In this document: in pieces, positions 4,088 to 38,541 of the stretch | How the letters are laid out: each line of letters begins with the position of its first letter | Numbering within the stretch: position 1 is the stretch's first letter | Origin: a virus | Lineage: Duplodnaviria > Caudoviricetes | DNA: 64,000 nucleotides | IMG/VR virus record: IMGVR_UViG_3300037755_000349 | Location: 1-64,000 of that record | Reading direction: 5' to 3' (one strand) | The notes under the pieces: model-generated | Seen by the model: only the letters and a program-made list of their open reading frames with translations | The model's database searches: none | What the model was told of the DNA's origin: nothing | Program-made: the position numbers and the translations under genes

Positions 4088-5179
4088 TCAGGCCGCTCGC
4101 TTCACCGGCTTGGTGAGCAGCGACTGCCAGTCCTTGCTCGCCAGCTCGACGAGCAGGCCACCATCGGTTTCCAGCTTGGTGGCCATGTCGTAGTTCTCCT
4201 CGTCCTGGCTCTGACGGGTGATGGCGTTCGCCAGGCCCCACCGGCTCAGATCGCCGCCCTCGATCAGATGGCGCAGTACGCCTTCCTTCGTGGACTCGTT
4301 GTAGCTGAAGCGCGTAGCGGCGAGTTCGACCACATCCTCGATCTTGCCCTCGATCTTCTGGCCGGCGGCTTCGCGCATCGGATTGGTGATCTTCTCGAAC
4401 ACGTCCTGCTTCATCACCCCGCGCACGGTGTCCTGCACCTTGGCCCACAGCGCGGTGTCATCGAGTTCCTTCGTGCGATCGCTGAACATCTCATAGGCTT
4501 CCTCGGTCTCGCCCGAGGCGCGCTTGCCCACATGCGTGCGGCGCTGCCCGTAGTCCTGCATGATCATTCCGTTCTTGCAGGAGAGGCGGAACACCAGCGG
4601 CGCCACTTGCAGCGCGCCCGAGCCAACCTCGCTATTCGAGATCACAATGCCGGCCTGCACGACATCCCCGACGTTGGCGATGCTGGTGGAGATCTTGGGG
4701 AACACGGCCTTGATGTAGAAACGCGTGTCGGTCAACTGCGTGGACTCGATGCGCAGACCATCGTACTCACGCAGCACCGGCATCACGGCGTTCGCGAGAT
4801 CGAAATTGTCGAGGGGGCGGTACTTGTCGGAGAGCACGGCGCGCACGCGATTATCGAGGGTGCGCAGCATGCGGCGCGTGGGCTCACGATGCAGCAATTC
4901 GGTGAGCGTGTAAGCCAGCATATCGGGATGATCGGCGCGAAGGCGATGGTAGAACGTGGCCGGCACTTTGAGCAGCTCGGCGAATTGGCCGTGAGCATGA
5001 TCGTTGATTGCCATTCTCACCGGGCCTTTCGAGCTATCGAGGCGCACGGCAAGTGTCGTCGGGACGAGGGCGTCCTGGAACACGCTCACCTTGCTTGTGT
5101 CGGCGATGAAGTCGCGCTTGGAGGCGCTTTGGCGTTCTATTTCGGCGGCCATTTGCACGAGGGTAAGACCTGATTTCAT
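4088..5179 (-). CDS. DUF932-family phage/plasmid protein
   Basis: RAVLSDKYRPLDN, GIVISNSEVGSGAL, FRLSCKNGMI motifs; AGGAG RBS before ATG 5179. Confidence 0.72.
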   Translation of the reverse strand: MKSGLTLVQMAAEIERQSASKRDFIADTSKVSVFQDALVPTTLAVRLDSSKGPVRMAINDHAHGQFAELLKVPATFYHRLRADHPDMLAYTLTELLHREPTRRMLRTLDNRVRAVLSDKYRPLDNFDLANAVMPVLREYDGLRIESTQLTDTRFYIKAVFPKISTSIANVGDVVQAGIVISNSEVGSGALQVAPLVFRLSCKNGMIMQDYGQRRTHVGKRASGETEEAYEMFSDRTKELDDTALWAKVQDTVRGVMKQDVFEKITNPMREAAGQKIEGKIEDVVELAATRFSYNESTKEGVLRHLIEGGDLSRWGLANAITRQSQDEENYDMATKLETDGGLLVELASKDWQSLLTKPVKRAA

Positions 5180-5258
5180 GATTCGACTCCTGAAGTGCCC
5201 CTGAATCCGCGCAGGGTTCGCGTTTCCCGGAAAACCCGGTAACGCAATATCAACACAA

Positions 5259-5298
5259 GTTGCACCGCTGTTGCAAGGGTGTTGCATTCGATGTTGCA
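5259..5298. promoter_or_regulatory. Four phased GTTGCA boxes in a divergent promoter region
   Basis: GTTGCA at 5259, 5270, 5281, 5293 (spacing 11/11/12) in the AT-richer gap between divergent operons. Confidence 0.6.
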
Positions 5299-5333
5299 CA
5301 TGAGCCATGATGCTAGGCAAAGGAGATATCCAA

Positions 5334-5639
5334 ATGAGCTATCAGGCCACCTACACCAAGTTGCGTTCCGGTGACTGGGGCATCCGCATCGCCGCTGCCG
5401 ATCTCTCTGAATTCCGCGCCGGCACCTACGTCCAGGTCGCGAAAAAGAGCGGCGAGCTGAAGCACGAGGCTATCGCAAAGATCATCTACGCCCGCAATGG
5501 GATCGCGCTGTGCGCTATCCGGCGCGAGAGCGACGGCAAGTGCCAACAATCCCGCATGATCCGTACCGGCTGCTCCTGCGGATCGATCGAGGGCTATCCA
5601 CGCAACTCTGACTGCGCGAGCTGTCAACACGACTATTGA
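5334..5639 (+). CDS. Hypothetical protein, first gene of the accessory operon
   Basis: AAGGAG RBS; MSYQATYTKLRSGDWGIRI; C-terminal CSC..CASC. Confidence 0.65.
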   Translation: MSYQATYTKLRSGDWGIRIAAADLSEFRAGTYVQVAKKSGELKHEAIAKIIYARNGIALCAIRRESDGKCQQSRMIRTGCSCGSIEGYPRNSDCASCQHDY

Positions 5640-5646
5640 GCACACG

Positions 5647-5880
5647 ATGAGTTACGAGAACCAGGAATGCCCTTGCGGTGGCAAGAAGCGGCGCGAGACG
5701 ATGCTCTGCGATGATTGCGTGCGCGAGTTCTCCGATCGCGAGGAGCTGAAGGACTACCTGAACGAGACGCTGAGCCTGGACTACCGCAGGAACGCGGCGC
5801 TCGTGCTGCTCTCCCTCGCACACAACCGCGTGCCCGGCCTGCACAAGCGACCCGGCGTGAGCACAGCGAGGCGCCGATGA
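5647..5880 (+). CDS. Small Zn-finger-like protein
   Basis: CPCG..LCDDC; ATGA-coupled to the next gene. Confidence 0.55.
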   Translation: MSYENQECPCGGKKRRETMLCDDCVREFSDREELKDYLNETLSLDYRRNAALVLLSLAHNRVPGLHKRPGVSTARRR

Positions 5881-10468: not shown

Positions 10469-10704
10469 TCAGCCGAGAACTGAAGGCGTTACTCATCCTC
10501 GCCTTCATGACGGAGACGATGGAGGCGGCAAAGCACATCCGCCATCGGCATCGCTGCGAGTGTGGTCACTCGTGGGAGCACACGGCAGCGGAGGCGAAGA
10601 ACACCCCTGGCGCGCACACTTGCATCTGCGGGCGCCGCGTCACGAAGCCTGAATATGATTTCCTACAACAACAAGGGGAGCAACATGGTGGCACCAGTAC
10701 CTGA
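10465..10704 (+). CDS. Small Cys/His protein
   Basis: HRCECGHSWEH..HTCICG. Confidence 0.45.
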   Translation: MISRELKALLILAFMTETMEAAKHIRHRHRCECGHSWEHTAAEAKNTPGAHTCICGRRVTKPEYDFLQQQGEQHGGTST

Positions 10705-11101
10705 CATTGAGTGGACCGACGACGAACTGCGCGCCGCAGCGGCCTGGTTGCATCAGCGCATGAACGAGGGTGCGGCAGGAGATCAGTTTGCTCGATGTGA
10801 GGCGAAGCACGCCGGCATTGCATTCGTCGAGCTGCGCCAGGCGATGCAGGACAAGCCGCGGCCACGCAAGGCGCAATGGTATTACCTGGGCATGATGGTG
10901 GTGTTCCTGCTCCTGGCCGAGCTGCATGCCGGCCCGCCGGCGGAAAATGGTTGGAGCACCTATGGCCCTTTAAGCAAGCTGCTCATCTTTTTGGCCGCGC
11001 TGAATCTGGCATCTGCGTGGAGCGCGCTACGCGAATATATGCGGTGGGCCGATCGCCAGTACAATCTGAAGCGCCGCATCGAGATCGAGGCCAAGACGTG
11101 A
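10685..11101 (+). CDS. Membrane protein with two predicted TM helices
   Basis: GGGGAG RBS; hydrophobic WYYLGMMVVFLLLA and LLIFLAALNLASAW. Confidence 0.55.
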   Translation: MVAPVPDIEWTDDELRAAAAWLHQRMNEGAAGDQFARCEAKHAGIAFVELRQAMQDKPRPRKAQWYYLGMMVVFLLLAELHAGPPAENGWSTYGPLSKLLIFLAALNLASAWSALREYMRWADRQYNLKRRIEIEAKT

Positions 11102-11931: not shown

Positions 11932-12166
11932 ACGCGTGTACCTGTGGCCACGCTCCCGAGGAGCATGGCGGCGATCCAAAGCACCCCGGCTCGACCGCGT
12001 GCCAAATAGAAGGATGCGATTGCATCGCTTACGATGAGGAAGAGGGCGACGGATGGGAGGATGAGCAAGCCACACACGGCTACGGCGATGACGAGTTCCC
12101 GTTCGGCCCATAGGTTATGCACATCAACAACCAGGAGCGAACGTTAGGGCGACGGTGCAGCTATGA
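11916..12166 (+). repeat. 16-bp exact direct repeat GACGGTGCAGCTATGA
   Basis: Copies at 11916-11931 and 12151-12166 flank the 11928-12113 gene. Confidence 0.85.
11928..12113 (+). CDS. Small Zn-binding protein with acidic tail ending EFPFGP
   Basis: CTCGH..EH..CQIEGCDC followed by a D/E-rich tail. Confidence 0.6.
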   Translation: MNACTCGHAPEEHGGDPKHPGSTACQIEGCDCIAYDEEEGDGWEDEQATHGYGDDEFPFGP

Positions 12167-12186
12167 GCCGTCATCAGAGGTGAGCG

Positions 12187-12340
12187 ATGAATGGTAACGA
12201 GACAATTGTGGACGGGCTGTTCGCCATAGCGGCGTCACTTGATGGTGTGGCGAGGGCTATTAGCAAGCTCGGGCTTGCGGAAGCATCAACGCCGATGGGC
12301 GACTCTGCAAATTTCTGAGGTCGTCAAGCACGACACATGA
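12187..12340 (+). pseudogene. Probably frameshifted small gene
   Basis: ATG 12187 frame stops at 12318, while another frame runs on to a TGA that is ATGA-coupled to 12337. Confidence 0.3.
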
Positions 12341-12609
12341 ACACCGAAGACTTCAAAGCCAGCTACCTGGAGCGCCTTATCAAGCGACTGGTCGACGACG
12401 GCGGCCAGCCCACGCCCGAGGCCGAGAGCATCGCGACCGAGCTGTACAGCCACTGCCCGCGCTTCGACATGGCGGAGGAGTACCAGCAAGATCCCGAGGC
12501 CGCGGCCGACGTTGCGTATGAGGACTGGGAGGAGGCCGACGATTTGGACGAGGATGACGAGTGGGCCGGCGACGAGGATCAGGAGGAGAACGAGTTTCCG
12601 TTCGGATAA
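12337..12609 (+). CDS. Highly acidic small protein ending EFPFG
   Basis: C-terminal half dominated by D/E. Confidence 0.6.
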   Translation: MNTEDFKASYLERLIKRLVDDGGQPTPEAESIATELYSHCPRFDMAEEYQQDPEAAADVAYEDWEEADDLDEDDEWAGDEDQEENEFPFG

Positions 12610-12613
12610 CACG

Positions 12614-12772
12614 ATGCACATCGGTGAAATGGTGATATTTGGCGCGATTGCCCTGGGCCTGAGCATTGCAGCCAGTCAGGCGCGATCGCAATTCGTTGCC
12701 GGTGTACTTATCGCCTACGCTACTATTGCGGCCACGTTGCTATTCATTGCGGCGGCAAGCGGGAGGAACTGA
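12614..12772 (+). CDS. Small membrane protein
   Basis: Two hydrophobic stretches in 52 aa. Confidence 0.45.
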   Translation: MHIGEMVIFGAIALGLSIAASQARSQFVAGVLIAYATIAATLLFIAAASGRN

Positions 12773-12773
12773 G

Positions 12774-13070
12774 ATGGTTCAGCGCGAGGTCGTGTTCATC
12801 GATCGATATCGCTTGTGGAGGCTTAATGAATTGGCCGCGATCGCTTCGATCATCGACGCACGTGCTCGCTACCTCGGCGATCTCTTGGGGCCACGATCGC
12901 AGCCGTTCGATGAGTTTTTCATACACAGATCGTCGCGGGAATTAATCGGTATCGACTTCCTTGTGGAGAGCCAGACGTGCGTACTCGTGCCGGAAGGCGC
13001 GGTTTACCAGATCACCGACTTGGAAGATTTCATACAGCGTTCACGCTCGATTGCGACGAGAAGCGCATGA
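12774..13070 (+). CDS. Hypothetical protein
   Basis: GGAGG RBS; ATGA-coupled stop. Confidence 0.5.
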   Translation: MVQREVVFIDRYRLWRLNELAAIASIIDARARYLGDLLGPRSQPFDEFFIHRSSRELIGIDFLVESQTCVLVPEGAVYQITDLEDFIQRSRSIATRSA

Positions 13071-13339
13071 ACCGCCGTCAATTCCTTGCCGGCCTGGGCG
13101 CCGGCCTCGCCACGATCGCGATCACGACCAGGCTCGCCACCACGGAGCTGCTGCCGAAGAACATCACTGCGCGGTGGGATCTCGAACGCGATACAGCCAC
13201 CATCGAGATAAGCGGGACCGATCAGTATGGCAACCGGATCGAGGAGACTATTCGGGTATCGTCTGAGCAAGTGGAAAATGGCGGCGAGATCCGGATGAAG
13301 CGTTTCAAGATGATCGACACCGTGGTGGCTGGCGCATGA
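13067..13339 (+). CDS. Tat-like leader plus fragment resembling structural protein 22476-23159
   Basis: MNRRQFL leader; TATIEISGTDQYGNRIEE vs TATVTIVGTDVYGSLMTE. Confidence 0.65.
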   Translation: MNRRQFLAGLGAGLATIAITTRLATTELLPKNITARWDLERDTATIEISGTDQYGNRIEETIRVSSEQVENGGEIRMKRFKMIDTVVAGA

Positions 13340-13665
13340 ACCGTCGAGGATTCCTCGCTGCCGCCGTCTCGGCCGCGCTGGCGCCGAAGGCCCTGATCCA
13401 GCCAGGCGTGCAGGTCTTCGAGACCGTGGCCATGGCGCCGGCGATCGCTGGTGACTTCGAGATTAGTTCGCTGCGTTACGCGGCGACGGAGCGATACAGC
13501 AATGCATTGATTGCCCCGAGTGTTTTCCGCGATCAGCTCCTCGATGGGCTCAACGAAGTATTTAGAAAGGCGCATGCCGAGCACGAACCAGGTGAGTGGG
13601 AAAAGCTGTTCGCGATCGAGGCGGATCAGGAGCCGCCAACAGAGTGGGCGAAGTTATCAACATAG
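13336..13665 (+). CDS. Tat-like leader plus permuted major-capsid C- and N-terminal segments
   Basis: MNRRGFL leader; GDFEISSLRYAATERYS and FRDQLLDGLNEVF match the capsid termini. Confidence 0.7.
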   Translation: MNRRGFLAAAVSAALAPKALIQPGVQVFETVAMAPAIAGDFEISSLRYAATERYSNALIAPSVFRDQLLDGLNEVFRKAHAEHEPGEWEKLFAIEADQEPPTEWAKLST

Positions 13666-13673
13666 GGGTGCGT

Positions 13674-14096
13674 ATGAAGTTCGATCCTCAGTCCTTTCGT
13701 GAGCGAGTGGATGCGCTCTTCGATCACGCCGACAACGGCATGCCGAGCGCGTACTTCGAGATCCCCGACACGGCGAACGACTGGCAACCGATGCGCGTGC
13801 ACTATCACGTCATTGCGTTCGCGGCCGAGAGCGCGGACATCGCGGCAGCTCGCGTGTTCCAGGAAGTGCAGAAGCTGCGCGCCACCGTGCCCGGCCTGGC
13901 CTGGCTCTTCTGGCGCAACGATCCGCGCATGACTTCCGAGTTCGACACGAGCACCGAGGGGATGGCCGAGGCGCAGATCGAGGACATGGAGCCGTGCTGG
14001 TTCAGGGTGAGAGTGCGCATTGCCGTGCCGAGAGGCGACTGGACGCAGGTCGAGCACGACCAGACGGAAGCGACGCGCATCCTGCTGACGGACTGA
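13674..14096 (+). CDS. Hypothetical protein
   Basis: AGGGG RBS; TGATG-coupled to the next gene. Confidence 0.6.
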   Translation: MKFDPQSFRERVDALFDHADNGMPSAYFEIPDTANDWQPMRVHYHVIAFAAESADIAAARVFQEVQKLRATVPGLAWLFWRNDPRMTSEFDTSTEGMAEAQIEDMEPCWFRVRVRIAVPRGDWTQVEHDQTEATRILLTD

Positions 14097-14398
14097 TGTT
14101 CGCGTCGATCATCAGAGAGCGGCTCCTCGCCGGACTCAATGACGTTTTTGGCATGCAGTACAAGGCAACCGAGCGATATCAATTCGGATGGCATAGGGAC
14201 GCGTGGGCTGGTGCGCTGCCAGTACCGACCTGGGAGCATTGTCTGCTCTGCCATCGAGAGACCCCGCATCTCGGCCATTGTGTCTATACAGCTTGGCATC
14301 CAAGCGGCAATGGCATCGCCGATCGCATGGAGGCTTACGGGCTCGACATCACGAATCCCGAGCATGTGCGCGAGTTCTCGGACGCGATGAAAAACTGA
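14096..14398 (+). CDS. Chimera of capsid termini and the scaffold C-terminal motif
   Basis: GLNDVFGMQYKATERYQFGW and MEAYGLDITNPEHVREF. Confidence 0.7.
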   Translation: MFASIIRERLLAGLNDVFGMQYKATERYQFGWHRDAWAGALPVPTWEHCLLCHRETPHLGHCVYTAWHPSGNGIADRMEAYGLDITNPEHVREFSDAMKN

Positions 14399-14400
14399 GG

Positions 14401-14901
14401 ATGCATGTGATGGACTTGGCCGATGTGATGCACGTGTACACCGGTTCGAACGGCACGGCCACGCGTGACATGTATCAGAAGCTCCTCGGCTACGGCCCTC
14501 GCGGCGTGATCGCAATCAACCTGTTCCGCGCGCAGAAGTGCAGCGAGCGCGCCAAGGTGTACCGAGGAGGCGGCTATCGCAGCAGTGCCTACGAACGTAA
14601 GCAATGGTCGATGAACAACCTGGTGGACGTGCTTGTCGTGCACGCGGCCGACTGCGGCATCATGTGGGGGTGGGGCACCGACGAGAAACAGGACTTCCAC
14701 AAGGTCGTGCTGTACCTGGACCTACCCACCGGCCAGGTGAGTTTCCACGCCGCTGTCCGCGGACAAGGTCCGGACTACCCCGGACAATGGGACGGCCAGG
14801 CCGGCGCCTCCCCTGGCCGGATCTGTCGCTACGTGGCCGACGTATTCGCTACCATACCGATCGAGGACGGGCGGGGCCTGGAACTACCCTTAGCCGAATA
14901 G
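14401..14901 (+). CDS. Conserved-looking phage hypothetical protein
   Basis: AINLFRAQKCSERAKVYRG..VLYLDLPTGQVSFH. Confidence 0.65.
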   Translation: MHVMDLADVMHVYTGSNGTATRDMYQKLLGYGPRGVIAINLFRAQKCSERAKVYRGGGYRSSAYERKQWSMNNLVDVLVVHAADCGIMWGWGTDEKQDFHKVVLYLDLPTGQVSFHAAVRGQGPDYPGQWDGQAGASPGRICRYVADVFATIPIEDGRGLELPLAE

Positions 14902-15059
14902 GCCAAGCAGGCGCCGTCCCTGCGGCGTGCCAGTGCTGCTACTAGCGTCACTCGGGGCCAAGTGTCGCCCGTCCATCCTCAAGGCGCTAAGATCCGCCCG
15001 TCCCGGCCCCCTGCGTTCAGGCGCCCGGCATCCAGCCGCCGCGATCGCCAGAGGGGTCC

Positions 15060-17600
15060 ATGCCCAAGCCATACAGCTCCACGCTCGTCGAACTGTCGCC
15101 CGAGGAGCCGCGCCCCTCGATGCAGCCGGACGGCTCGCGCATCACGCGCAACGGTGACGGCACCATCACCATCGAAGGCCAGCAGCAGGCCGGTCCGCGT
15201 ATCCCTGTCGAGGGCGACTTCGACGAGAATTTGGCGCCGTACTTCACCGCCGGCGAACGGCAATTCGTCGCTGAGCAGCTCATCGAGTACTCGCGCGTGG
15301 ATATCGAGTCGCGCGCCGACTGGGAGCTGAAGGAGGAGCGCTGCCTGGAGATGCTCGGGATCAAGGACATCCCGCCAGAGCGAGATGAGTCGCCAGGCTT
15401 CCATAAGGTCACGCATCCCATGCTCGTTGAGGCGTGCGTGCAGTTCCAGGCGCGTGCGATTGCAGAGTTCTACCCGGCCACCGGCCCGGTGAAGTGCACC
15501 CCAATCGGCAAGCGCAGCCGCCGACGCATTGAGCAGGCCGATCGCGTCGAGACTTTCATGAACTACTACCTGACCGGGATCGACGCCGGTTACTTTCCGG
15601 ACACCGACCAGATGTTGCTGTACCTGCCGATGTCAGGCAGCGCATTCCGCAAGTGCTCGCCGGATTGGCGCACCGGCCTGCCGCAGCTCAGGTACGTGAA
15701 GGCCACGAATTTCATCGCGCCGTACTCGGGCTTGTCGCTGGACACAATGCCGCGCTATGCACACCGCTACACGATGAGCGGCCTGGATATTCAGCGCTCG
15801 ATCGACCGCGGCATGTTCTACGACGTGAACCTGCAACCCCCTGCGATGGGAGAGGCGCGGCACTCGCGCACGGAGGACACCGCGGATTTCCGCGAGATGG
15901 TGATGCACGAGGACGATCGGCTGTACAACATCCTCGAATATCACATCGAGATGCCGCTCTCCTCCCCCGAGCTGCCGGAGCACGAGGATGGCGCCACGCT
16001 GCCGTACATCATCCTGGTCGAGGAGACGAATCGCGAGATCCTCCTGATGCGGCGCAACTGGAAGCAGATGGATGAGCAGCGCCGTAAGCGCATTTGGTTC
16101 TCTCACTATCGGTTCTTGCCCGGCCTGGGCTTCTACGGCTTCGGCTTTCCGCACGTCATCGGCTCGCTCGGCCGCGCCGCCTCGGGCGCCGTGAACGCGC
16201 TGCTCGACTCCGCGCTGATGGCGAATCTGCAAGGCGGCTTCAAGACGAAGGAGGCGAAGAACAGCGCGAAGGAATACCGGCTTACCCCTGGCGTGTGGAC
16301 CGATGTAGACATGGCCTACGACGAGATCTCGAAGGCGTTCTACACCCCGCCTTTCCGTGAGCCGAGCCCGGCCCTGTTCCAGCTCCTCGATCGCCTGGTG
16401 GCCGCCGGCCAGCGCTTCGCCTCGACCACGGAGGTGATGGTCGGGGATGCCGACAACCGCGGCCCGGTGGGCACGACGGTGGCGCTGATCGAGGAAAGCT
16501 CGCGCGTCTATACCGCGATCCACAAGCGCATGCACAACAGCGCGGGCGAAGAGTTCCGCATGCTCTCCGAGTACATCGGGGAGTACATGCCCAACGAGTA
16601 CACCTACGACTTCGACGACCAGACGCGCACGCTGCTGCAAACCGACTTCGATGGCCGCGTCGACGTGGCGCCAGTGTCGGATCCGAACATCTTCAGCTCG
16701 ACACAGCGTATCGCGCTCGCGCAGGCCGTAATCGAGTTGCAGATGCAACGCCCCGAACTGTATCCACCACAGAAAGTGATCGCCGCGCACCGGCGCCTGC
16801 TGGAAGCGCTGCGCGTGCCAGATCTCGATGAGGTGGCGCCCGAGATGGACATGCCGAAGTTCATCGACGCGGTGAGCGAGAACGGTTTGATGCTGGTCGG
16901 CAAGGGCACGCGTGCATTCGAGTATCAGGATCACCAGTCGCACATGCTGATCCACCAGAACGGTTTGCAATGGGCGATGGCCGCGAACCAGGAACCCGAG
17001 CAGCAGCAGCAGATCGCCGCGGCGTTCATGGCCCACATCCGCGAGCACCAGGCGCTGCACTATCGCTCGATGATCCAGCAGCAGCTCGGCATGCCGTTGC
17101 CGCCGCTGGATGAGGCCGGCATGCCGCAGGAAGTCGATCCGGAGTTCGAGGCCCGGTTGAGCCAGGCCGTCGTGCAGGCGCTGCCGCCCCCGCCCCTGCC
17201 TCCGGGCCAGGAACAGCAGGCCGCGGAAGGCCAGGCCGTGCTCGACAAGACGCAGGCCGCGATCAAGGCGAAGGAGATGGATGCCACCGCCAAGGTCGAG
17301 CGCGACACGATGGCGTTCGTCGGGGAGGAGAAGCGCAAGGAGGTGGCGTTCCAGAACGACCAGCGCCGGCAAAATGTGAATCTTGCGTTCGATCTGTCGC
17401 GCCAGTCCAAAGGCGCGAACCTCCAGGATCGCATCAAGGATCGCCAGGCATCCGCAGACCTGATCCGCACCGGCGTGAAGGGTAAACTGGCGCAGCGGCA
17501 GACCGAAGCGCAGGGTAAGCTGAAGATGAACCTGGCCGCCGAGCAAGCCAAGGCGAAGGCCAAGACGGTGAAAAAGAAAGCCAATGGAGCGTCACGTTGA
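15060..17600 (+). CDS. Portal protein (P22-like) with long C-terminal extension
   Basis: 846 aa; HPMLVEACVQFQARAIAE, GFYGFGF, GTTVALIE..AIHKRMH, VSDPNIFS motifs; first gene of the head operon. Confidence 0.88.
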   Translation: MPKPYSSTLVELSPEEPRPSMQPDGSRITRNGDGTITIEGQQQAGPRIPVEGDFDENLAPYFTAGERQFVAEQLIEYSRVDIESRADWELKEERCLEMLGIKDIPPERDESPGFHKVTHPMLVEACVQFQARAIAEFYPATGPVKCTPIGKRSRRRIEQADRVETFMNYYLTGIDAGYFPDTDQMLLYLPMSGSAFRKCSPDWRTGLPQLRYVKATNFIAPYSGLSLDTMPRYAHRYTMSGLDIQRSIDRGMFYDVNLQPPAMGEARHSRTEDTADFREMVMHEDDRLYNILEYHIEMPLSSPELPEHEDGATLPYIILVEETNREILLMRRNWKQMDEQRRKRIWFSHYRFLPGLGFYGFGFPHVIGSLGRAASGAVNALLDSALMANLQGGFKTKEAKNSAKEYRLTPGVWTDVDMAYDEISKAFYTPPFREPSPALFQLLDRLVAAGQRFASTTEVMVGDADNRGPVGTTVALIEESSRVYTAIHKRMHNSAGEEFRMLSEYIGEYMPNEYTYDFDDQTRTLLQTDFDGRVDVAPVSDPNIFSSTQRIALAQAVIELQMQRPELYPPQKVIAAHRRLLEALRVPDLDEVAPEMDMPKFIDAVSENGLMLVGKGTRAFEYQDHQSHMLIHQNGLQWAMAANQEPEQQQQIAAAFMAHIREHQALHYRSMIQQQLGMPLPPLDEAGMPQEVDPEFEARLSQAVVQALPPPPLPPGQEQQAAEGQAVLDKTQAAIKAKEMDATAKVERDTMAFVGEEKRKEVAFQNDQRRQNVNLAFDLSRQSKGANLQDRIKDRQASADLIRTGVKGKLAQRQTEAQGKLKMNLAAEQAKAKAKTVKKKANGASR

Positions 17601-17833
17601 TGGCGAAGCCGTCGCCCGCTGAGACGCGCGCAGCGAAGGGATTCCTGCGCACACATGCAAAGGCGAGGTCGGGCGAGATCCCGCCGCGCAAGTTCGCTGC
17701 CGCGAGCAAGGAGCTTGGCGTCGGCTTCCGAGATCTGCTGCGCTTCATCGCGCGACTGTACTCGGGCGGGCAGGGTGAGGGCGCGTTCCGGATGGATCGC
17801 GTTCGCGAGTTACAGGGCAAACAGTCGAAATGA
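17600..17833 (+). CDS. Hypothetical basic protein
   Basis: TGATG-coupled to the portal stop. Confidence 0.55.
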   Translation: MAKPSPAETRAAKGFLRTHAKARSGEIPPRKFAAASKELGVGFRDLLRFIARLYSGGQGEGAFRMDRVRELQGKQSK

Positions 17834-17845
17834 AGCGAGGCAATC

Positions 17846-18121
17846 ATGTACAAGCGAAGCGAGGGATTCGATCCGGACCGGCCGCCGGCGGAGGCAAAGC
17901 AGCACCCCAAGCAGCGGGAGCCGCACGTAAACGCGGAGAACACGATCGGGGCGGGCAGCGAGCGCAGTCCGTATCCGCAGAACACGATCGGCAGCGGCGG
18001 GGAGAAGCCGGGCCACGGGGAGCGGACGATCGGCCACGGGGAGCGGACCCCGAGCCGGCCGGACAACGACCCGCTGCCGGGCGGCGATTGCTCCAAGCAC
18101 AGCGGCACGATCGCGGACTGA
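17846..18121 (+). CDS. Low-complexity protein with NTIG/GHGER repeats
   Basis: GAGG RBS; 17-bp repeat GGCCACGGGGAGCGGAC at 18011 and 18032. Confidence 0.5.
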   Translation: MYKRSEGFDPDRPPAEAKQHPKQREPHVNAENTIGAGSERSPYPQNTIGSGGEKPGHGERTIGHGERTPSRPDNDPLPGGDCSKHSGTIAD

Positions 18122-18330
18122 CGGACAACTCGGCGCCCTTCGCGAACCGCGTGCTGAAGTGGGCGGGTGAAGAGCGCCTCGTCCTCATCGAGCACCTGGC
18201 GAAGGGTCTGGCCGAGCGCGAGTACTTGCTGACCTGCGGGCGCATCAAGCAGCTCGATGAGACCATCGCTCACCTGGAGGAGCTGTACCGCAAATACATC
18301 CAAGACGACGAGGAAGATGACGATGAGTAG
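18118..18330 (+). CDS. Small helical head-module protein (start uncertain: CTG 18118 or ATG 17830)
   Basis: EYLLTCGRIKQLDETIAHL resembles the small gene often found before phage GroES; acidic tail. Confidence 0.45.
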   Translation: MTDNSAPFANRVLKWAGEERLVLIEHLAKGLAEREYLLTCGRIKQLDETIAHLEELYRKYIQDDEEDDDE

Positions 18331-18877
18331 ACGAAACAAGGGCCGCGTATTTTCTTTGCCGCCCGTGATCTCGCGACCTGGCCCCTCGATGGGAGACGCG
18401 CACCGCGATCTGCACGATGCCGATCGCCACGTCGATCGCCGGCATGACACGGATGAAAACATCGAGCGATTGATCCGCGAGGCCGACAAGCAGGCCGCGC
18501 TTGAGCCGGTCGATGTGACGAACCTGCCGATGCAGCCGATGTTCTGGCACGTACTGGTCGAGCCGATGCGCGCCTCTGCGAAGATCGGCAGCGGCGTGCT
18601 GTACCAGGCCGATGAGAGCAAGCGAGTCGAGGAGATCCAGACGACAATCGGGCGCCTGGTGGCGATCGGACCTTGCGCGTTTACCGGCAAAACGAATGCC
18701 GGAAACTTCCTCGGCGAAGGGATCGAGCGCGAGAAGTTGATCAACAGATGGGTGATGTACGCCAAGCACACCGGCCAAGAGATCAAGCTGCGCACCGGCC
18801 ACCGATTGCTGCTGCTCAACGACTCCGAGCTGCTCGCATTCGTGGAAAATCCCGAGGATTTCCGGCACTGGCTTTGA
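18323..18877 (+). CDS. groES: GroES/Cpn10-like co-chaperonin
   Basis: PMFWHVLVEP..GSGVLY..GRLVAIGP..WVMYAKHTG..LLLLNDSELLAFVENP. Confidence 0.8.
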   Translation: MSRRNKGRVFSLPPVISRPGPSMGDAHRDLHDADRHVDRRHDTDENIERLIREADKQAALEPVDVTNLPMQPMFWHVLVEPMRASAKIGSGVLYQADESKRVEEIQTTIGRLVAIGPCAFTGKTNAGNFLGEGIEREKLINRWVMYAKHTGQEIKLRTGHRLLLLNDSELLAFVENPEDFRHWL

Positions 18878-19057
18878 TCGAGTTGGGCGTAGGTACGGCC
18901 AAAGAAAGCCGTACTTACGTCGTTCTTATGGGGTTCTTATTGGATAAAAATCCCATAGTTACCCTCACTGATATCAGCCGCGGAGATTAGAAAAGCCTCC
19001 CCTCGTTGCGGAAGATCCTCGCCGCACGTCGTGCAACACACGACAACGAGGAGCAAC

Positions 19058-20200
19058 ATGGCTCGCACACAAACCACTGGCGGCAAGGCAAAGGGGGGCA
19101 AGCAATGGAAGCCGGCCCCGACCGACCAGGAGAAACCTTTCGCTGAGATCGATCTCGGAGCGTCGAAGGACGGCATTCAGCGCATGGCTGACGAGCCCGA
19201 CGAGGATGCCGACGATGATCTGCCTGGTTCCGAAGGCGATGACGGTGAGCAGCCACGTGAGCGGCGCTTCATAGATCGTAGCAAGTCCGTGAGCAAGCGC
19301 CTCGGGCGCATGGAACGCAGCTTCAACCAGCGATTTGCGGATCAGGAAGCTCGATGGCAGCGCCAAGTCGCCGATCTCAAGCGCGAGAACAGTTCGCTAC
19401 GCGTCAATCGCGGGGTAAGCGAAGCCGACCAGGCCGCGCATGACAGCAAGATCGCGGCCTGGCAATCCGAACTCGAAACCGCCTACGAGAAGGGCGACAC
19501 CAAGAAACAAGCCGAGCTGACCACGAAGATTGCTCAGGCACAGGGTGAGTTCGAGTCGAAGAAGCGCGCTGCCATGCTCGGCCAGCAGCAGCACCAGGAC
19601 CGTGACGATCGACGCGATGCCGTCGACCAGCGCGGTGATCCCGACAACCGCGGCAACGGACCGACGCGCGAGGCGCGCAAGTGGATGCGTGCGAATGATG
19701 ACTGGTGGAACGATCCGGAGTTCGAGATCGAGAAGCAGGCCGCCATCGTCATCGACAACCAACTCATCGACGAAGGCTCCGATCCCAACGATCCGGAGCA
19801 CTACGAAGAGCTGCGCGAGCGCCTGCTCGACAAGTTCCCGGACATGGAATCGGAGATTGCGATGCCTAGCGCACGCCGTGGCCGCCGCGATGCGCGCCGC
19901 GATGACGATGAAGACGATGACCTCGACGATGACCGTGGCGATCGCCGCGATCGTCGCGACACGCGTGGCGCCCGCAACGGCAGCACGCGCCGCCCGCCCA
20001 TCCCGGCCTTCGCCGATCGAGGCGCAGATCGAGGTAATCAACCGCGGCGCTCCAACGGTCGCACTGTCACCCTCTCGCGCGCGCAGCGCGAGAACATGAT
20101 CACTTTCGGACTCGATCCGCAGAATGACGATCATGTGAAGGAGTACGCGAAGTCCGCCGAAGAAACGACGCGCGCCTACGCGCGTGAGGGTCGTCACTGA
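19058..20200 (+). CDS. Capsid scaffolding protein
   Basis: Charged coiled-coil; WMRANDDWW..DP..EHYEEL; position between portal and capsid. Confidence 0.7.
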   Translation: MARTQTTGGKAKGGKQWKPAPTDQEKPFAEIDLGASKDGIQRMADEPDEDADDDLPGSEGDDGEQPRERRFIDRSKSVSKRLGRMERSFNQRFADQEARWQRQVADLKRENSSLRVNRGVSEADQAAHDSKIAAWQSELETAYEKGDTKKQAELTTKIAQAQGEFESKKRAAMLGQQQHQDRDDRRDAVDQRGDPDNRGNGPTREARKWMRANDDWWNDPEFEIEKQAAIVIDNQLIDEGSDPNDPEHYEELRERLLDKFPDMESEIAMPSARRGRRDARRDDDEDDDLDDDRGDRRDRRDTRGARNGSTRRPPIPAFADRGADRGNQPRRSNGRTVTLSRAQRENMITFGLDPQNDDHVKEYAKSAEETTRAYAREGRH

Positions 20201-20829
20201 TGAAAGCCGGATCAGTCATCTCGCGCGCAAAGCGCGCCGCGGACGTAGCTCCGACGATTGCTCGCCAGCAGCGCGAGCGCCGTGGTCAACGCTCGGATGG
20301 AGACATCCATGCCGTAGACAATTCAACGAATCTTTCGCGCGTTGCGCAGGCGGACGAAGCACGTGAGGTGCCGCGTCCGGCTGAGAAACGCAGATGGAAG
20401 CCCGCCAGTCACCTGCCCGCAATCAAGAACCCACCAGGCTATTCGCTGAAGTGGGTTCGGCGCGATGGCCGTGATCGTGGCGATTGCCGTGGCTTGGCCA
20501 AGTACTTACAGGAAGGCTGGGAGTTTGCGAGGAAGGAAGACTTCCCCAAGCGTTCTCTCCCGACTCAGCCCCTGACCAGTTACGGCGAGACGATCGGGAA
20601 TGGCGACATGGTCCTCATGAAATTGGCTGAGGACATGCTCGCGCAGCGCAACGAGCACTACCAGGGAAAGCGCGACACGGCGACCTACGCCGTCGAGAAG
20701 GGCAACTTGGGCGAGACCAGCAATCTGATGCCGGCTCAACGTCCTCGCCGTTCCTCTCGCACGGAGTTTGTCCGCTTCCGCAAGCGCCGCCCGGATGCAA
20801 TTGAAGTTGCGTCGGACGAAGACGATTAA
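20200..20829 (+). CDS. Head-module hypothetical protein
   Basis: WKPASHLP..PPGYSLKWVR..YLQEGWEF. Confidence 0.7.
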   Translation: MKAGSVISRAKRAADVAPTIARQQRERRGQRSDGDIHAVDNSTNLSRVAQADEAREVPRPAEKRRWKPASHLPAIKNPPGYSLKWVRRDGRDRGDCRGLAKYLQEGWEFARKEDFPKRSLPTQPLTSYGETIGNGDMVLMKLAEDMLAQRNEHYQGKRDTATYAVEKGNLGETSNLMPAQRPRRSSRTEFVRFRKRRPDAIEVASDEDD

Positions 20830-20852
20830 CCCCTAAACCGGAGAATTTGCAC

Positions 20853-21422
20853 ATGGCAAATCGAGACAATCCTTCCGGTCTCAAGGTTGCGCGCCACGCC
20901 CGCGGTGGACTCACGCGCCCGAATCGTTACTTCATCGCGTCGGCGCTCGCCTCGAATATCTTTCGCGGCGACCCCGTCATTCCTGTGAACACGAACAAGC
21001 GCATCAACGTCGCGGCGGCGGGTAACCGTCTCATCGGCGTGTTTCAAGGCGTGGCTTTCGAAAACGCGCAGGGTGAAGTGAAGTTCGAGAAGTACTGGCC
21101 GACAGGTCAGACCTTGAAGACCAATTCCGTGGCCGAGGCCCTCGTATGGGACGACCCGGAGACTCTGTTCGAGATCCAGCATTCCGGCAGCATGCTGCAA
21201 GCGGATGTTGGTGCGTTCTTTGACGTGACGATGGCGACCGCGGGTAATACCGCGACCGGCATTTCCGGCGCGGAGCTGGACACCACCACGCTCAGCACGA
21301 GCGATGGCCAACTTCGTTTCGAGCAGATCGCCGATCGGCCCGACAACGAGGTGGGCGCCAACGGCAAGGCTCTCGTTGTGATCAACGAGCATTACTTGCG
21401 CGGCGCCTTGACAGCCATCTGA
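20853..21422 (+). CDS. Capsid-associated (cement/decoration-like) protein
   Basis: MANRDNPSGL..IFRGDPV..DDPETLFEIQ; directly upstream of the capsid gene. Confidence 0.6.
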   Translation: MANRDNPSGLKVARHARGGLTRPNRYFIASALASNIFRGDPVIPVNTNKRINVAAAGNRLIGVFQGVAFENAQGEVKFEKYWPTGQTLKTNSVAEALVWDDPETLFEIQHSGSMLQADVGAFFDVTMATAGNTATGISGAELDTTTLSTSDGQLRFEQIADRPDNEVGANGKALVVINEHYLRGALTAI

Positions 21423-21454
21423 CCACCTGAATCTGAACCTGGAGTATCACCACC

Positions 21455-22360
21455 ATGATGACGCGTAGTGATTTCCGGAAGCAGCTTCAGGAGGGCCTGA
21501 ATGCTGTTTTCGGTGTTGAGTACAAGCGCCACCCAGAGGAGTGGCGTGCGATCTTCGACGTGGAGAATTCGTCGAAGGCGTTCGAAGAAGACGTGATGGA
21601 AGTGGGCCTGGGTGCCGCTCCCGTCAAGGCCGAGGGTGCCGCGATCGAGTACGACGAAGGGTACGAGACCTACGTCGCGCGCTACCGGCACGACACGATC
21701 GCGCTGGCCTTTGCGATCACCGAGGAAGCTGAAGAGGACAACCTCTACGGCAGCGTCGGCAACCGCATGAGCCGTGCGCTGGCTCGTTCCCTGCAACACA
21801 CCAAGGAAGTGAAGGGCGCGAACATTCTGAACTTCGGATTCGACACCAATTTCCCCGGTGGCGACGGAGTTCCGTTGTTCTCGGCCTCGCATCCGCTTGG
21901 TGGCGGGGGCGTGCTGTCCAACACGTTGGCGACGCCTGCCGATCTGGCCGAAAGCTCGATGGAAGAGCTGATGAACCAGATCAGCGAGTGGACGGACGAT
22001 CGCGGCCTGCCGATGAAGGCCATGATCACGAAGCTCATCATCCCGGTGGAGTTGCAATTCATTGCCGCTCGCCTGTTGATGAGCCCGTACCAGCCGGACA
22101 CGGGCGACAACAACATCAACGCGATCCAGAAACTCGGTGCGATCAGGGACGGCTATGCCGTCAATCACTACCTGACCGATCCCGACGCCTGGTTCTTCAA
22201 GACCGACACTCAGGACGGCTTGAAGCACTTCGTGCGGCGCGCTGTGAAGCGCGGCCTGGAGGGCGACTTCGAGACGGGCAACATGCGCTACAAGGCCAGC
22301 GAGCGGTATTCGCAGGGCTGGTCGAACTGGCGCGGTGCTGCCGGATCTGCGGGGGCCTGA
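21455..22360 (+). CDS. Major capsid protein
   Basis: GGAG RBS; QLQEGLNAVFG, KAEGAAIEYD, DGVPLFSASHP, YLTDPDAWF, RYKASERYS motifs. Confidence 0.88.
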   Translation: MMTRSDFRKQLQEGLNAVFGVEYKRHPEEWRAIFDVENSSKAFEEDVMEVGLGAAPVKAEGAAIEYDEGYETYVARYRHDTIALAFAITEEAEEDNLYGSVGNRMSRALARSLQHTKEVKGANILNFGFDTNFPGGDGVPLFSASHPLGGGGVLSNTLATPADLAESSMEELMNQISEWTDDRGLPMKAMITKLIIPVELQFIAARLLMSPYQPDTGDNNINAIQKLGAIRDGYAVNHYLTDPDAWFFKTDTQDGLKHFVRRAVKRGLEGDFETGNMRYKASERYSQGWSNWRGAAGSAGA

Positions 22361-22397
22361 TCGCGTAGTCCTCACACCATCAAAGCGATGAGCTGAT

Positions 22398-22426
22398 AGG
22401 GCGGCAGGTGACGGGCCTGCCGCCCT
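22398..22426 (+). terminator. Strong hairpin after the capsid gene (terminator or stabiliser)
   Basis: Perfect 11-bp stem AGGGCGGCAGG/CCTGCCGCCCT with a 7-nt loop; weak U-tract. Confidence 0.55.
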
Positions 22427-22475
22427 TGAAGCATCGGATGCCCGCAAGGGCTGCTATCAACGGAGAGCTTCCACC

Positions 22476-23159
22476 ATGTCGCGTCAACTTCTGTCTCGGG
22501 CTACTGATCTTTTCCTCGGCGCCGTCGCCTACGCTCGCGCGTTCTCGGGCAAGTACGGTGCTCCTTTCTCACCCCTCGTCGTCCACAACTTCGGCGCTCC
22601 GATCATCGGGGATGCCGATGGCATCAGTGTGTCGGCGACGATCACCGCACCGGCCTCGGCCGTCATCGGTGGCGCGCTCGCCTCCGGTGGTGTCGCGACG
22701 TTCGACGTGCCGCGCAATGTCGTGGGCGCCTGGACGAACACGGCCACGGTCACGATCGTGGGCACCGATGTGTACGGCTCGCTGATGACCGAGGTCTCGG
22801 CCAGCGGGACCTCGCACACCGGAACCAAGGCGTTCAAGACGGTCACGTCTGTCACGCCGAGCGTCACGGTCACGGGCGCAACATTCGGTACGGGTGACGT
22901 ACTCGGACTGCCCTACCGCGTGGACAAGAACAAACTCATTGCAGCCCGCGCAGGGAACGCGATCGACGCTGGTGTATTCGTGCCGGCGGTGACGACCGAT
23001 CCGGCAACCGGGACCACTGGCGATGTGCGCGGCACGTTCAATCCGGCGGTGACGTTGGACGGCGTCGAGACAATCTCGGTGGTTTTCGAGATCGCGGATC
23101 GCTCTTCCAAAGTCGGGACCTACGGCGTCAAGCAATTCGGTAGCGCCGATAGCGTCTAA
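22476..23159 (+). CDS. Virion structural protein (decoration-like); paralog of 23260-23922
   Basis: Thr/Val/Gly-rich beta protein; DADGIS..PRNV..GTDVYG. Confidence 0.6.
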   Translation: MSRQLLSRATDLFLGAVAYARAFSGKYGAPFSPLVVHNFGAPIIGDADGISVSATITAPASAVIGGALASGGVATFDVPRNVVGAWTNTATVTIVGTDVYGSLMTEVSASGTSHTGTKAFKTVTSVTPSVTVTGATFGTGDVLGLPYRVDKNKLIAARAGNAIDAGVFVPAVTTDPATGTTGDVRGTFNPAVTLDGVETISVVFEIADRSSKVGTYGVKQFGSADSV

Positions 23160-23165
23160 CCAGTT

Positions 23166-23240
23166 TGCGGGGTGGCGCAGCGGCAGCGCGCCGGGCTCAT
23201 AACCCGGAGGTCGCAGGTTCAAATCCTGTCCCCGCAACCA
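23166..23240 (+). tRNA. tRNA-Met(CAT), initiator-like anticodon arm, encoded CCA
   Basis: Full cloverleaf: GCGGGG/CCCCGC acceptor, CCGGG-CTCATAA-CCCGG anticodon arm, GGTTCAAATCC T-arm, ACCA end. Confidence 0.93.
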
Positions 23241-23259
23241 TCAGGAGGAGGAGAGAGTC

Positions 23260-23922
23260 ATGCGAGTACTCGAACGAATCGCGACGGTGATCACTGCCGA
23301 TCCGGACGGCATCGCCGCGTCGCAAACGCCCGCGGGAGCCGGGGACCTGGTGCTCGATGGCGCGACCGTGAAGGCCGACGACGGCACGGCCACCTACGAC
23401 ATCGGCGCCGCGGTGCTCAATCCGCCGCGTCGAGTGACCATCACCTCCGCTGCCGACATCTCCAACCGCACGCTCACGATCTACGGACGCGATCGCGTGG
23501 GCACCGAGATCTCCGAGACCCTCACCGGGCCGAACGCAACGACTGTCACCAGCGTACTGGTCTACAAGACGGTGAGCCGCATCTCGATCTCAGGGGCCGC
23601 GGCCGGCGCGCTCACGGTGGGCTTCGGCGCCGAGTTCATCACGCCGTGGATCGTGCTTGCGAACATGCGGGGTGATTATCACTGGCTCTCGCGGGTGTTC
23701 TTCGCTGCCGGTGGCACGGTGAACTACGACATCGAGGTGACGAGCGACAAGTACCTGCTGCAACGCTCGGGGGATTACTCCGATGACACCCACGCAGTGC
23801 TTGCCGCGCAGACGGCAAACACCGAGAGCAGCAACGATGCCAACTACGCAGCGGTGCGGCTCAAGGTGAATGCGACCGATGTGCCCGTGACGATGCGCGT
23901 CATTCCCTCTCGAACGGCATAA
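23260..23922 (+). CDS. Virion structural protein; paralog of 22476-23159
   Basis: AGGAGG RBS; ADPDGIA..PRRV..GRDRVGTEISE. Confidence 0.65.
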   Translation: MRVLERIATVITADPDGIAASQTPAGAGDLVLDGATVKADDGTATYDIGAAVLNPPRRVTITSAADISNRTLTIYGRDRVGTEISETLTGPNATTVTSVLVYKTVSRISISGAAAGALTVGFGAEFITPWIVLANMRGDYHWLSRVFFAAGGTVNYDIEVTSDKYLLQRSGDYSDDTHAVLAAQTANTESSNDANYAAVRLKVNATDVPVTMRVIPSRTA

Positions 23923-23932
23923 GGTGGGTTCC

Positions 23933-25465
23933 ATGTTCATCAAGCAAAGATTTGCGGCCCTGCTCCTCGGCATTGGCGCTGCGCTCGGTGCAGCGGTCTT
24001 TGCTCAAGATCCACCGCTACGCAACTTCAGTACGCCGGCGACGGGTAACGTCACGGGAGTGGCCAGCTCGGTGGACAGCGAGATCGCGCTGTTCAACGGC
24101 ACCGGCGGCAAGACCATCAAGCGCGCTACCGGCACGGGCCTGGCGCTCGCGACCTCCGGGGTGTACTCGGTGCTCGCGCCGACCGATGACAACCTTACGG
24201 TGGGCAACGGCACGACCTGGCAACTCAAGGCGCTCGGGGATTGCGACGACAGCGGCGGCAATCACCTGAACTACGACACGGCCACCAATGTGTTCACTTG
24301 CGGCACATCGAGCAGCGGGGGCGGGGGCACGCCTGGGGGCGCGGACACCAATATCCAGTACAACGATGGTGGAGCGTTCGGTGGTGAAGATGATCTGTCG
24401 TGGAATGAGACGACGAACGCGCTGATCCTGGGCACCACCACCACGGCCGGGACGATTCAGGGTGTTGACCGCACAACTTCAGGCGCCGGGGTCGCGCTTA
24501 CTGTTAGGGCGGGAGCTGCCAATACCTCCGGTGCGGGTGGAACCTTGACGCTTCAAGGCGGTACTAGCGTGGGCACTGGGGGCGGCCAAGTTACTGTTAT
24601 CGGCGGCACCCCCGGTACAGCTTCTGGTGGGGGTAATGTTTTTCTGGATGGCGGCCCCGGCGGTTCCACGAGCGGGGATGGTGGCGATGCCACAGTACGT
24701 GGCGGTAGCCCTGCGACAAGCGGGGCCGGGGGACGTGCCCTGTTGACGGGCCGGGCCGGTGTTGGGACCAACCAAAACGGTGGGGCTGTTGTAATAACCG
24801 CAGGAAATTCCACCGGGTCCGGTACGGCTGGTGCAGCCACGATGACGGCCGGCGTGGGTGGCACTACCGGTTCGGGCGCAACGGCTTCCATTGTTGGTGG
24901 AGCTGGCGGCACTACATCCGGCGGGGGCGGTTCCGCGTCTATTTTTGGTGGCACTGGCACCGATGGCAATGGCGGTTTTGTAAGTGCAGTAGCTGGCAAT
25001 GGCCAGGGAACAAATCGTCGCGGCGGTAATGCATTCATGTCTGCTGGAGCGGGTATTGGCACCAATGACGGCGGAGATGTTTCATTGAATGGCGGTACGG
25101 CAGGTGCCTCGGGTAATGGTGGCCTCGCGACAGTGCAGGCCGGGGGCGCGACGACTGGGACTCCAGGTAGCGTCACGGTTCAGGGCGGCATCGCTGGCAC
25201 TTCCGGGCCGGGTGGCAGCATTAATGTCACAGCCCGCAATGGGGTAGGGACGAACCAGAATGGTGGGAACATTGTTCTTACCCTGGGTGCCGAAACTGGC
25301 GCCGGTACGCCGGGTACGCTTCAGGTCGTCAACGGCACGCTCACCGGCGCACAGACCGCGACCTTTACGGCAACGAACAAACCCGGTTCTGGCACGACAG
25401 CACCGAGCTTGTGGCTTCGTGTGGTGGTTGGAGCCACCACGTATTACATCCCCATGTGGCAATAG
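23933..25465 (+). CDS. Gly/Thr-rich fibre- or adhesin-like protein with Sec-type signal peptide
   Basis: MFIKQRFAALLLGIGAALGAAVFA-Q; many GG.V.I.(A/G)G repeats. Confidence 0.65.
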   Translation: MFIKQRFAALLLGIGAALGAAVFAQDPPLRNFSTPATGNVTGVASSVDSEIALFNGTGGKTIKRATGTGLALATSGVYSVLAPTDDNLTVGNGTTWQLKALGDCDDSGGNHLNYDTATNVFTCGTSSSGGGGTPGGADTNIQYNDGGAFGGEDDLSWNETTNALILGTTTTAGTIQGVDRTTSGAGVALTVRAGAANTSGAGGTLTLQGGTSVGTGGGQVTVIGGTPGTASGGGNVFLDGGPGGSTSGDGGDATVRGGSPATSGAGGRALLTGRAGVGTNQNGGAVVITAGNSTGSGTAGAATMTAGVGGTTGSGATASIVGGAGGTTSGGGGSASIFGGTGTDGNGGFVSAVAGNGQGTNRRGGNAFMSAGAGIGTNDGGDVSLNGGTAGASGNGGLATVQAGGATTGTPGSVTVQGGIAGTSGPGGSINVTARNGVGTNQNGGNIVLTLGAETGAGTPGTLQVVNGTLTGAQTATFTATNKPGSGTTAPSLWLRVVVGATTYYIPMWQ

Positions 25466-38540: not shown

Positions 38541-38541
38541 C

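Follow-up and report, generated by a model that had tools for sequence, protein, structure and literature searches.

Satellite capsid-redirecting proteins, CpmB of SaPI1 (with the 80alpha scaffold) and Sid of P4, copy the C-terminus of the helper scaffold and bind the capsid protein. The gene cassette described here, which includes the 90-aa protein P0001 of an uncultured phage, resembles them in that a short conserved part of a head-assembly protein has been put to new use in accessory proteins. CpmB and Sid are encoded by satellites, are cytoplasmic, have no Tat leader and serve a known function, size redirection, whereas here the phage itself carries the copies. Host sensors also recognise short conserved pieces of head proteins, examples being the Gol peptide of T4 gp23 with the Lit protease, and CapRel. 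Such recognition is the premise of a decoy reading of P0001; Gol differs in that it lies within the capsid gene itself and triggers defence. We know of no phage-encoded exported decoy, and a literature search for Tat-leader/capsid-fragment proteins or capsid-mimic decoys found no description of them.

The nearest described concept is Tab, a tail assembly blocker that a prophage of Pseudomonas aeruginosa encodes and that blocks the assembly of invading phages (Patel et al. 2024, PMC10884400). Both Tab and P0001 are small, optional accessory proteins of phages, related to conflict, with a virion-assembly step or protein as the target, proposed in the case of P0001. They have no sequence or architectural relation, and Tab is, as far as is known, described neither as a copy of a virion protein nor as the bearer of an export signal. 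Tab targets tail assembly, whereas the sources of the P0001 cassette are head-module proteins and its function is a proposed one.

The window analysed here is a stretch of 64,000 nucleotides, positions 1-64,000 of a 72,067-bp IMG/VR record with direct terminal repeats, and the genome is estimated to be complete. The phage is uncultured and its source is probably a sediment metagenome, the one public run in which the stretch occurs. The large terminase gene (882-2606, Pfam Terminase_6C) is followed by a plus-strand island of small genes of ~12 kb and then by the head module, in the order portal, Cpn10-like, scaffold-like, cement-like (phrog_37556) and HK97-type capsid. The putative portal gene (15060-17600, 846 aa) was named from its size, its position and the 866-985-aa genes found at the same place in relatives; it had no match in Pfam or PHROGs. 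A GroES/Cpn10-like gene (18257-18877) lies between portal and scaffold, and its counterparts in the relatives match Pfam Cpn10. The major capsid protein (21455-22360, plus strand) is of HK97 type (Pfam Phage_capsid_4, E 1.1e-11; phrog_371) and is 51-57% identical to the capsids of Pelagibacter HTVC023P-type, Roseobacter CRP-901/902 and Planktothrix phages. On its 3' side are the genes for P0002 (22476-23159), tRNA-Met (23166-23240) and P0003 (23260-23922). In a megablast of window positions 12000-24000 against GenBank phages, a match was found over the tRNA alone. The island between terminase and portal also contains small proteins with hydrophobic, membrane-span-like stretches (10562-11101 and 12512-12772), and a DUF932 protein is encoded on the minus strand inside it, downstream of the terminase (4091-5338).

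The P0001 gene (13067-13339, plus strand) was detected as an open frame whose stop-free translation gives a pre-protein of 90 aa, in which a Tat-type leader precedes a cargo equivalent to half a jelly-roll. Its GC content by codon position (0.57/0.46/0.76) is a coding pattern. The start and the stop codon each overlap the adjoining ORF by a 4-nt ATGA, so that the upstream ORF (12774-13070, plus strand, without a Pfam family) is translationally coupled to P0001. This operon of overlapping small genes sits between the large terminase and portal genes. A promoter and terminator scan of the region from 9 to 15.2 kb gave no signal above shuffles. Small homologues of P0001 are rare, about five among 1.8 billion representative proteins, and include P0123 (53% identical), P0124, P0129 and P0128. 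Homologues of similar size also begin with M/V-N-R-R, and a longer ORF from the GTG at 12977 was rejected because this start is found in all homologues. Between P0001 and P0123, dN is 0.44 and dS 0.81, giving a dN/dS of ~0.54 with dS near saturation. P0001 is very probably a real gene, accessory and optional in this phage with its complete genome of 72 kb.

The leader comprises residues 1-24 (13067-13138, plus strand) and consists of MNRR, a stretch of moderate hydrophobicity, a T-I-A (residues 16-18) and a conserved TTRLA. It scored 18.4 bits on the NCBIfam model TIGR01409 (TAT_signal_seq), above the cut-off of 16.7, and the corresponding scores of P0123 and P0124 (21.0 and 19.5 bits) are also above it. 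On Pfam TAT_signal (PF10518) it reached 18.8 bits, below the gathering score of 22.7; this was nevertheless the sole Pfam family that matched P0001 at E up to 0.1. Residues 2-8, N-R-R-Q-F-L-A, agree with the twin-arginine consensus (S/T)-R-R-x-F-L-K, and the following h-region is mildly hydrophobic (mean Kyte-Doolittle hydropathy of 1.69 for residues 6-21). An (A/T)-x-A at residues 16-18 is kept in 6/6 leaders, and would give an unusually short signal if the site were used. In the conserved T-R-L-A the residue at -3 is Arg, and cleavage there may not occur, since this residue is basic. The AF2 model has a helix at residues 3-23. The first 31 residues of P0001 are 57% identical to the Tat signal of a bacterial sulfatase in L113, and a leader scan of JGI metagenomes found bacterial sulfatases that start with the same eleven residues, MNRRQFLAGLG. 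Tat targeting of P0001, as predicted from these features, is probable.

The leader shares with Tat signal peptides and small Tat substrates the RR-x-F-L directly after the start, the moderate h-region and the (A/T)-x-A. It is unlike the usual Tat signals in being short (18-24 residues) and better conserved than its cargo, and its export is a prediction; the cargo is unlike that of known Tat substrates, being a 60-residue fragment of a virion-protein fold and not an enzyme or cofactor protein. Identity between P0001 and its homologues P0123 and P0124 is 68-79% over the leader and 37-44% over the cargo. Such a difference is unusual for a mere export signal and counts against the Tat reading. The leader also recurs on P0130, where 20/30 residues are identical to those of the P0001 leader and the cargo is a C-terminal piece of the capsid protein. 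Because it is better conserved than the cargo and recurs in this way, the leader is a portable module, and besides targeting it may serve a purpose that depends on its sequence. In two further proteins of the cassette the leader precedes a Cys-rich, metal-site-like cargo, which is of a kind that suits the export of a pre-folded protein.

P0002 (22476-23159, plus strand), encoded after the capsid gene, is the 227-aa representative of the parent family in this genome. It has ~1968 metagenomic homologues, and the family consists of proteins of ~220 aa encoded after the capsid gene in uncultured phages of ~65-77 kb. The AF2 model of P0002 is confident (pLDDT 92) and has a jelly-roll core at residues 43-144. 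The best VIA-align match was the STIV A223 turret protein (Z 7.5), and TNF/C1q, PRD1 P5/P31 and carbohydrate-binding modules came next; Z values of this size show the fold class only, a generic jelly-roll. Foldseek with the model found nothing in the PDB at E <= 0.001 and uncharacterised viral proteins alone in BFVD, and the ESM Atlas returned unnamed viral clusters alone. Searched with tblastn, P0002 matched one uncultured phage. Neither P0002 nor P0003 belongs to a family in Pfam, PHROGs or NCBIfam. By its position after the capsid gene and its conservation in relatives, P0002 is a putative structural protein.

P0003 (23260-23922, plus strand) is a paralog that was delimited with HMMs. Its N-terminal half is similar to the P0002 jelly-roll (BLASTP E 3e-6; 35.7 bits with the P0002 HMM on P0003 residues 6-127), and the HMM of its C-terminal half matches the ORFs of ~100-110 aa that follow P0002 in the relatives G001-G003. 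P0003 thus looks like a fusion of a P0002-type jelly-roll with a separate gene of ~110 aa, as judged from sequence comparison.

The core of the P0001 cargo (residues 29-86, 13151-13324, plus strand) has three to four beta-strands homologous to a segment of the P0002 jelly-roll, according to BLASTP, hhalign and HMM searches. The segment of P0002 that is echoed, residues 78-126 (22707-22853, plus strand), is in the alignments the most conserved part of its family. BLASTP between the two segments gave 34% identity and an E of 2e-7. In an HHpred-type comparison (hhalign) with an alignment of 40 P0002-family sequences, P0001 matched over 52 columns with a probability of 92.5% and an E of 5e-7. The P0002-family HMM gives P0001 23.7 bits; in a separate hmmsearch restricted to residues 25-90 the score was 22.6 bits, while the best of 2000 shuffles reached 9.6. 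The invariant or nearly invariant columns of the family are R80, N81, W86, G96, T97, D98, Y100, G101, E106, K118, F120 and K121. P0001 retains almost all of them, as P-K-N..W, G-T-D-Q-Y-G, E and K-R-F-K, where the family has PRN..W, GTDxYG and K.FK. By our own count, 10/18 residues are identical in the first block and 4/9 in the second. Towards P0003 the similarity is weaker (BLASTP E 0.018; 15.9 bits on the P0003 HMM).

The cargo corresponds to four consecutive strands, about half of the P0002 sandwich. P0001 has neither the complete jelly-roll (family residues 43-144) nor the family length of ~220 aa; it lacks the N- and C-terminal parts of the family and has a leader added. It is therefore a fragment-derived relative of the P0002 family and not a member. 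AF2 models P0001 poorly (pLDDT 59) and places strands at residues 32-38, 43-51 and 57-65. The ESM Atlas held no usable match for P0001, and the cargo has no family in PHROGs, Pfam or NCBIfam. The cargo is about equally similar to all members of the P0002 family; since the P0002 of its own genome ranks 56th of 121, it is an old fragment that tracks the family consensus. A recent intragenomic duplication was rejected, as other family members are closer to the cargo than the P0002 of the same phage, and a silent gene-conversion cassette was rejected because homologous recombination requires more than 35% identity. Common ancestry of P0001 and P0002 is highly likely from these comparisons.

The original prediction, a Tat-type leader joined to a homologue of part of the protein whose gene follows that of the capsid, is borne out by the TIGR01409 score and by the BLASTP and hhalign results. 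The sequence blocks that it quoted are present, with 10/18 residues shared with the 22476-23159 product, and so is the related stretch in the product of 23260-23922, the more distant of the two. It had further called the parent a structural protein and the cargo a piece of it. The label agrees with the position after the capsid gene, but P0002 falls into no family of Pfam or PHROGs, and Foldseek gave it no named match; the cargo is homologous to the family, but as an old, consensus-like fragment rather than a recent copy of the phage's own gene.

P0001 is not the only gene of the island with an echo of the head module. The sibling that follows it (13336-13665, plus strand) has a second MNRR leader and then a C-terminal and an N-terminal piece of the capsid protein, in this order (positions 254-289 and then 4-40 of the capsid HMM, E 8.8e-9 for the full sequence; also found with BLASTP). 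Another sibling (14096-14398, plus strand) is leaderless. It carries N- and C-terminal pieces of the capsid (the N-terminal one at capsid HMM positions 4-28, E 7.5e-4) and a weak C-terminal motif of the scaffold (scaffold HMM positions 347-366, E 0.03), together with a CxxC...H..C motif. The region was scanned with HMMs of twelve head-module and neighbouring late products, from the portal to the early tail region; for five of these the HMM was made from a single sequence or a thin family (1-11). Among the 100 plus-strand ORFs between 5 and 15 kb, three were matched: 13067 (P0002/P0003), 13336 (capsid) and 14096 (capsid, and scaffold weakly). The only two MNRR leaders of the window are on 2 of these 3 ORFs, among the 100 (Fisher, ~6e-4). 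As had been proposed, P0001 adds a third protein to those echoed in the cassette, beside the capsid echoes and the weakly supported scaffold echo. With it the leader-tagged pattern, otherwise one of capsid pieces, takes in a second head-module protein.

Other phages of this lineage also have the cassette close to their head genes, and similar genes were found on metagenomic contigs. In L114 an overlapping row before the portal gene contains P0132 (leader plus capsid pieces, the homologue of the 13336-13665 sibling), P0124 (of P0001 type) and a gene for a capsid C-terminal piece with a CxxC motif and a scaffold-like C-terminal motif; L091 repeats the last two of this row in the same overlapping arrangement. 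The homologues of the 14096 sibling in L091 and L114 have the same order of pieces. L114 likewise encodes small proteins with hydrophobic, membrane-span-like stretches (258-647 and 1479-1613). The 65-kb relative G004 has a leader-plus-capsid-pieces gene, so that homologues of the sibling genes are known from L091, L114 and G004. The metagenomic contig L092, of 2.6 kb, has three MNRR-leader genes (314-652, 649-1068 and 1955-2335) with an HTH gene between them. Their cargos are the P0002 hairpin in one, a Cys-rich sequence in another and capsid C-terminal pieces in the third. In L115, a phage that also has a P0002-family gene, the P0128 gene lies between portal and Cpn10 and fuses a capsid piece directly to the P0002 hairpin. 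This fusion, similar to a Rosetta stone, suggests from its sequence that the capsid and P0002 pieces may act together. Also between portal and Cpn10 of L115, a Tat-type leader (TRRRFL ... ALVDA) was found on a 133-aa protein (5460-5861).

The distribution of these genes is patchy. Of the six complete genomes in the lineage, two have leader-plus-head-piece genes and one has the P0001 type, which is absent from all five complete relatives (G001-G005). The cassette is not needed for assembly, since it is absent from 4/6 complete genomes with the same head genes. A search for P0001-family loci found nothing in IMG/VR, and in JGI metagenomes it found bacterial sulfatases alone, through the leader; a separate protein homologue search with P0001 returned only P0001 itself. 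The small genes made of head-protein pieces are a recurring and apparently undescribed set.

Taken as a whole, our best explanation, to which we give somewhat less than an even chance, is that P0001, targeted by Tat, mimics a conserved surface of head proteins and so binds a partner and sequesters it at the membrane. The leader would take the cargo to the TatBC receptor of the host, and the cargo would come to lie at the outer face of the inner membrane, either tethered or released there. A half sandwich is probably not stable alone, for which reason the cargo would most likely work by pairing with a partner, one that recognises the conserved face of P0002. As a mimic, P0001 would bind and sequester, or remove from the cytoplasm, something that recognises head-protein surfaces. 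The target could be a host sensor that responds to structural proteins of phages, or else an assembly protein, whether from a rival or from the same phage. Head proteins never enter the periplasm, and binding of the partner would therefore have to precede or accompany export. Tat normally needs a folded cargo. It is also reported to carry bound partners, in what is called 'hitchhiker' export (PMC10924467).

The mimic and sequestration role is preferred because all cassette pieces come from head-module proteins, and from their most conserved pieces, and because the genes are optional; taken by itself this role is possible, though doubtful. Several findings stand against the favoured reading. 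Head proteins never reach the periplasm, which leaves a periplasmic mimic without an obvious target. The AF2 model of P0001 is poor, in contrast to the preference of Tat for folded cargo. The Pfam Tat model remains below its gathering score, and the hairpin of the cargo also occurs in Ig-like repeats. A broader version, rather unlikely in our view, is that phages of several lineages encode 'virion-epitope' mini-proteins, made of a Tat leader and the most conserved short pieces of head-module proteins (capsid, scaffold and, here, the jelly-roll protein), that would act as decoys: they would capture a molecule that recognises head proteins, a host immune sensor or the assembly factor of a rival, and hold it at the Tat receptor or remove it from the cytoplasm by hitchhiker export. 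If this class were true, it would be a new counter-defence or inter-phage weapon with the export machine of the host as the disposal route. If the leader-tagged pieces are functional mimics, they would mark head-protein surfaces that something else in the infected cell recognises, and they would be a new phage use of the Tat pathway.

A different account retains the shared fold and dispenses with mimicry. The piece of P0002 may have been raw material for a new small envelope protein with a job unrelated to the partners of P0002, which could be, for example, a periplasmic or membrane-tethered protein for superinfection exclusion or for masking a receptor or glycan. The leader does point to the envelope, the island also encodes small hydrophobic proteins, and among the jelly-rolls related to P0002 are carbohydrate-binding modules and knobs that bind receptors. 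The retained GTDxYG turn and K.F strand could be determinants of the fold and not an interface, and the P0001 gene is optional. However, half a jelly-roll is unlikely to retain a binding site, and the capsid- and scaffold-piece neighbours in several phages, as well as the P0128 fusion, are left unexplained. We consider this account improbable.

About as improbable is that P0001 is not exported. The leader would then dock or anchor the protein at the cytoplasmic face of the membrane, or be a chaperone-binding tag, and the cassette proteins would there modulate the assembly of the phage's own head (nucleation, timing or quality control). This would agree with a leader that is better conserved than the cargo and common to different cargos. 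It would also agree with the place of the cassette, which always adjoins genes of head morphogenesis (it precedes the portal gene in the window and L114 and lies between the portal and Cpn10 genes in L115), with the capsid N-arm and weak scaffold C-terminal motif of the leaderless sibling at 14096, and with the origin of all source proteins in the head module, P0002 by position only. But the cassette is missing from 4/6 complete relatives that have the same head genes, and the leader resembles genuine Tat signals, including the (A/T)-x-A site.

The original prediction had named a generic GTD.YG hairpin, found in many unrelated proteins, as the finding that would undo it. Such a hairpin does exist, and taken alone GTDxYG(N) is partly a generic beta-sandwich motif, as far as can be told from sequence. 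HMMER searches with P0001 (phmmer) of the 1.8 billion representative proteins also reach long repeat proteins (DUF7507, Big_3/Bact_surface_Ig-like and HYR), whose repeats have an x-T-D-x-x-G-N hairpin in common with it. A DUF7507-repeat profile scores P0001 at 13.3 bits, and P0123 and P0124 reach 1.5-3 bits only on the P0002 HMM. These results could be read as a likeness without common ancestry, due to a hairpin of many beta-sandwich domains. The match to the P0002 family is, however, ~10 bits better (23.7 vs 13.3 bits) and longer than the match to the Ig-like repeats, it exceeds the shuffles (<=9.6 bits) and it includes PKN..W and K.FK. The P0002 HMM does not recognise the Ig-like repeats (<=1.7 bits), none of the Pfam Ig-like models (DUF7507 PF24346, Big_3 PF07523, HYR PF02494) matches P0001 at E up to 0.1, and the neighbours of P0001 echo other head proteins of the same phage. 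A purely generic hairpin is thus very unlikely, and the objection holds for the motif and not for the longer match.

Non-functional recombination debris or an unexpressed ORF, to which the rarity of the family and the absence of the gene from most relatives might point, is very improbable, given the invariant residues retained at ~35% identity to the source, the homologues at 34-53% identity, from separate metagenomes, in which length, start and place in the operon are conserved, and the coding GC3 with overlapping stop and start codons. The locus shows new phage genes arising from short pieces of old genes and a portable leader module.

Other genes of the window also deserve mention. Directly after P0003, 23924-25465 encodes a glycine-rich protein of 513 aa whose N-terminus is similar to a Sec-type signal (a hydrophobic stretch leading to V-F-A, followed by Q-D), an odd feature if the gene is, as presumed, one for a tail or fibre protein. 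Further downstream, 38458-50271 is one open frame of ~3938 codons that encodes a giant protein.
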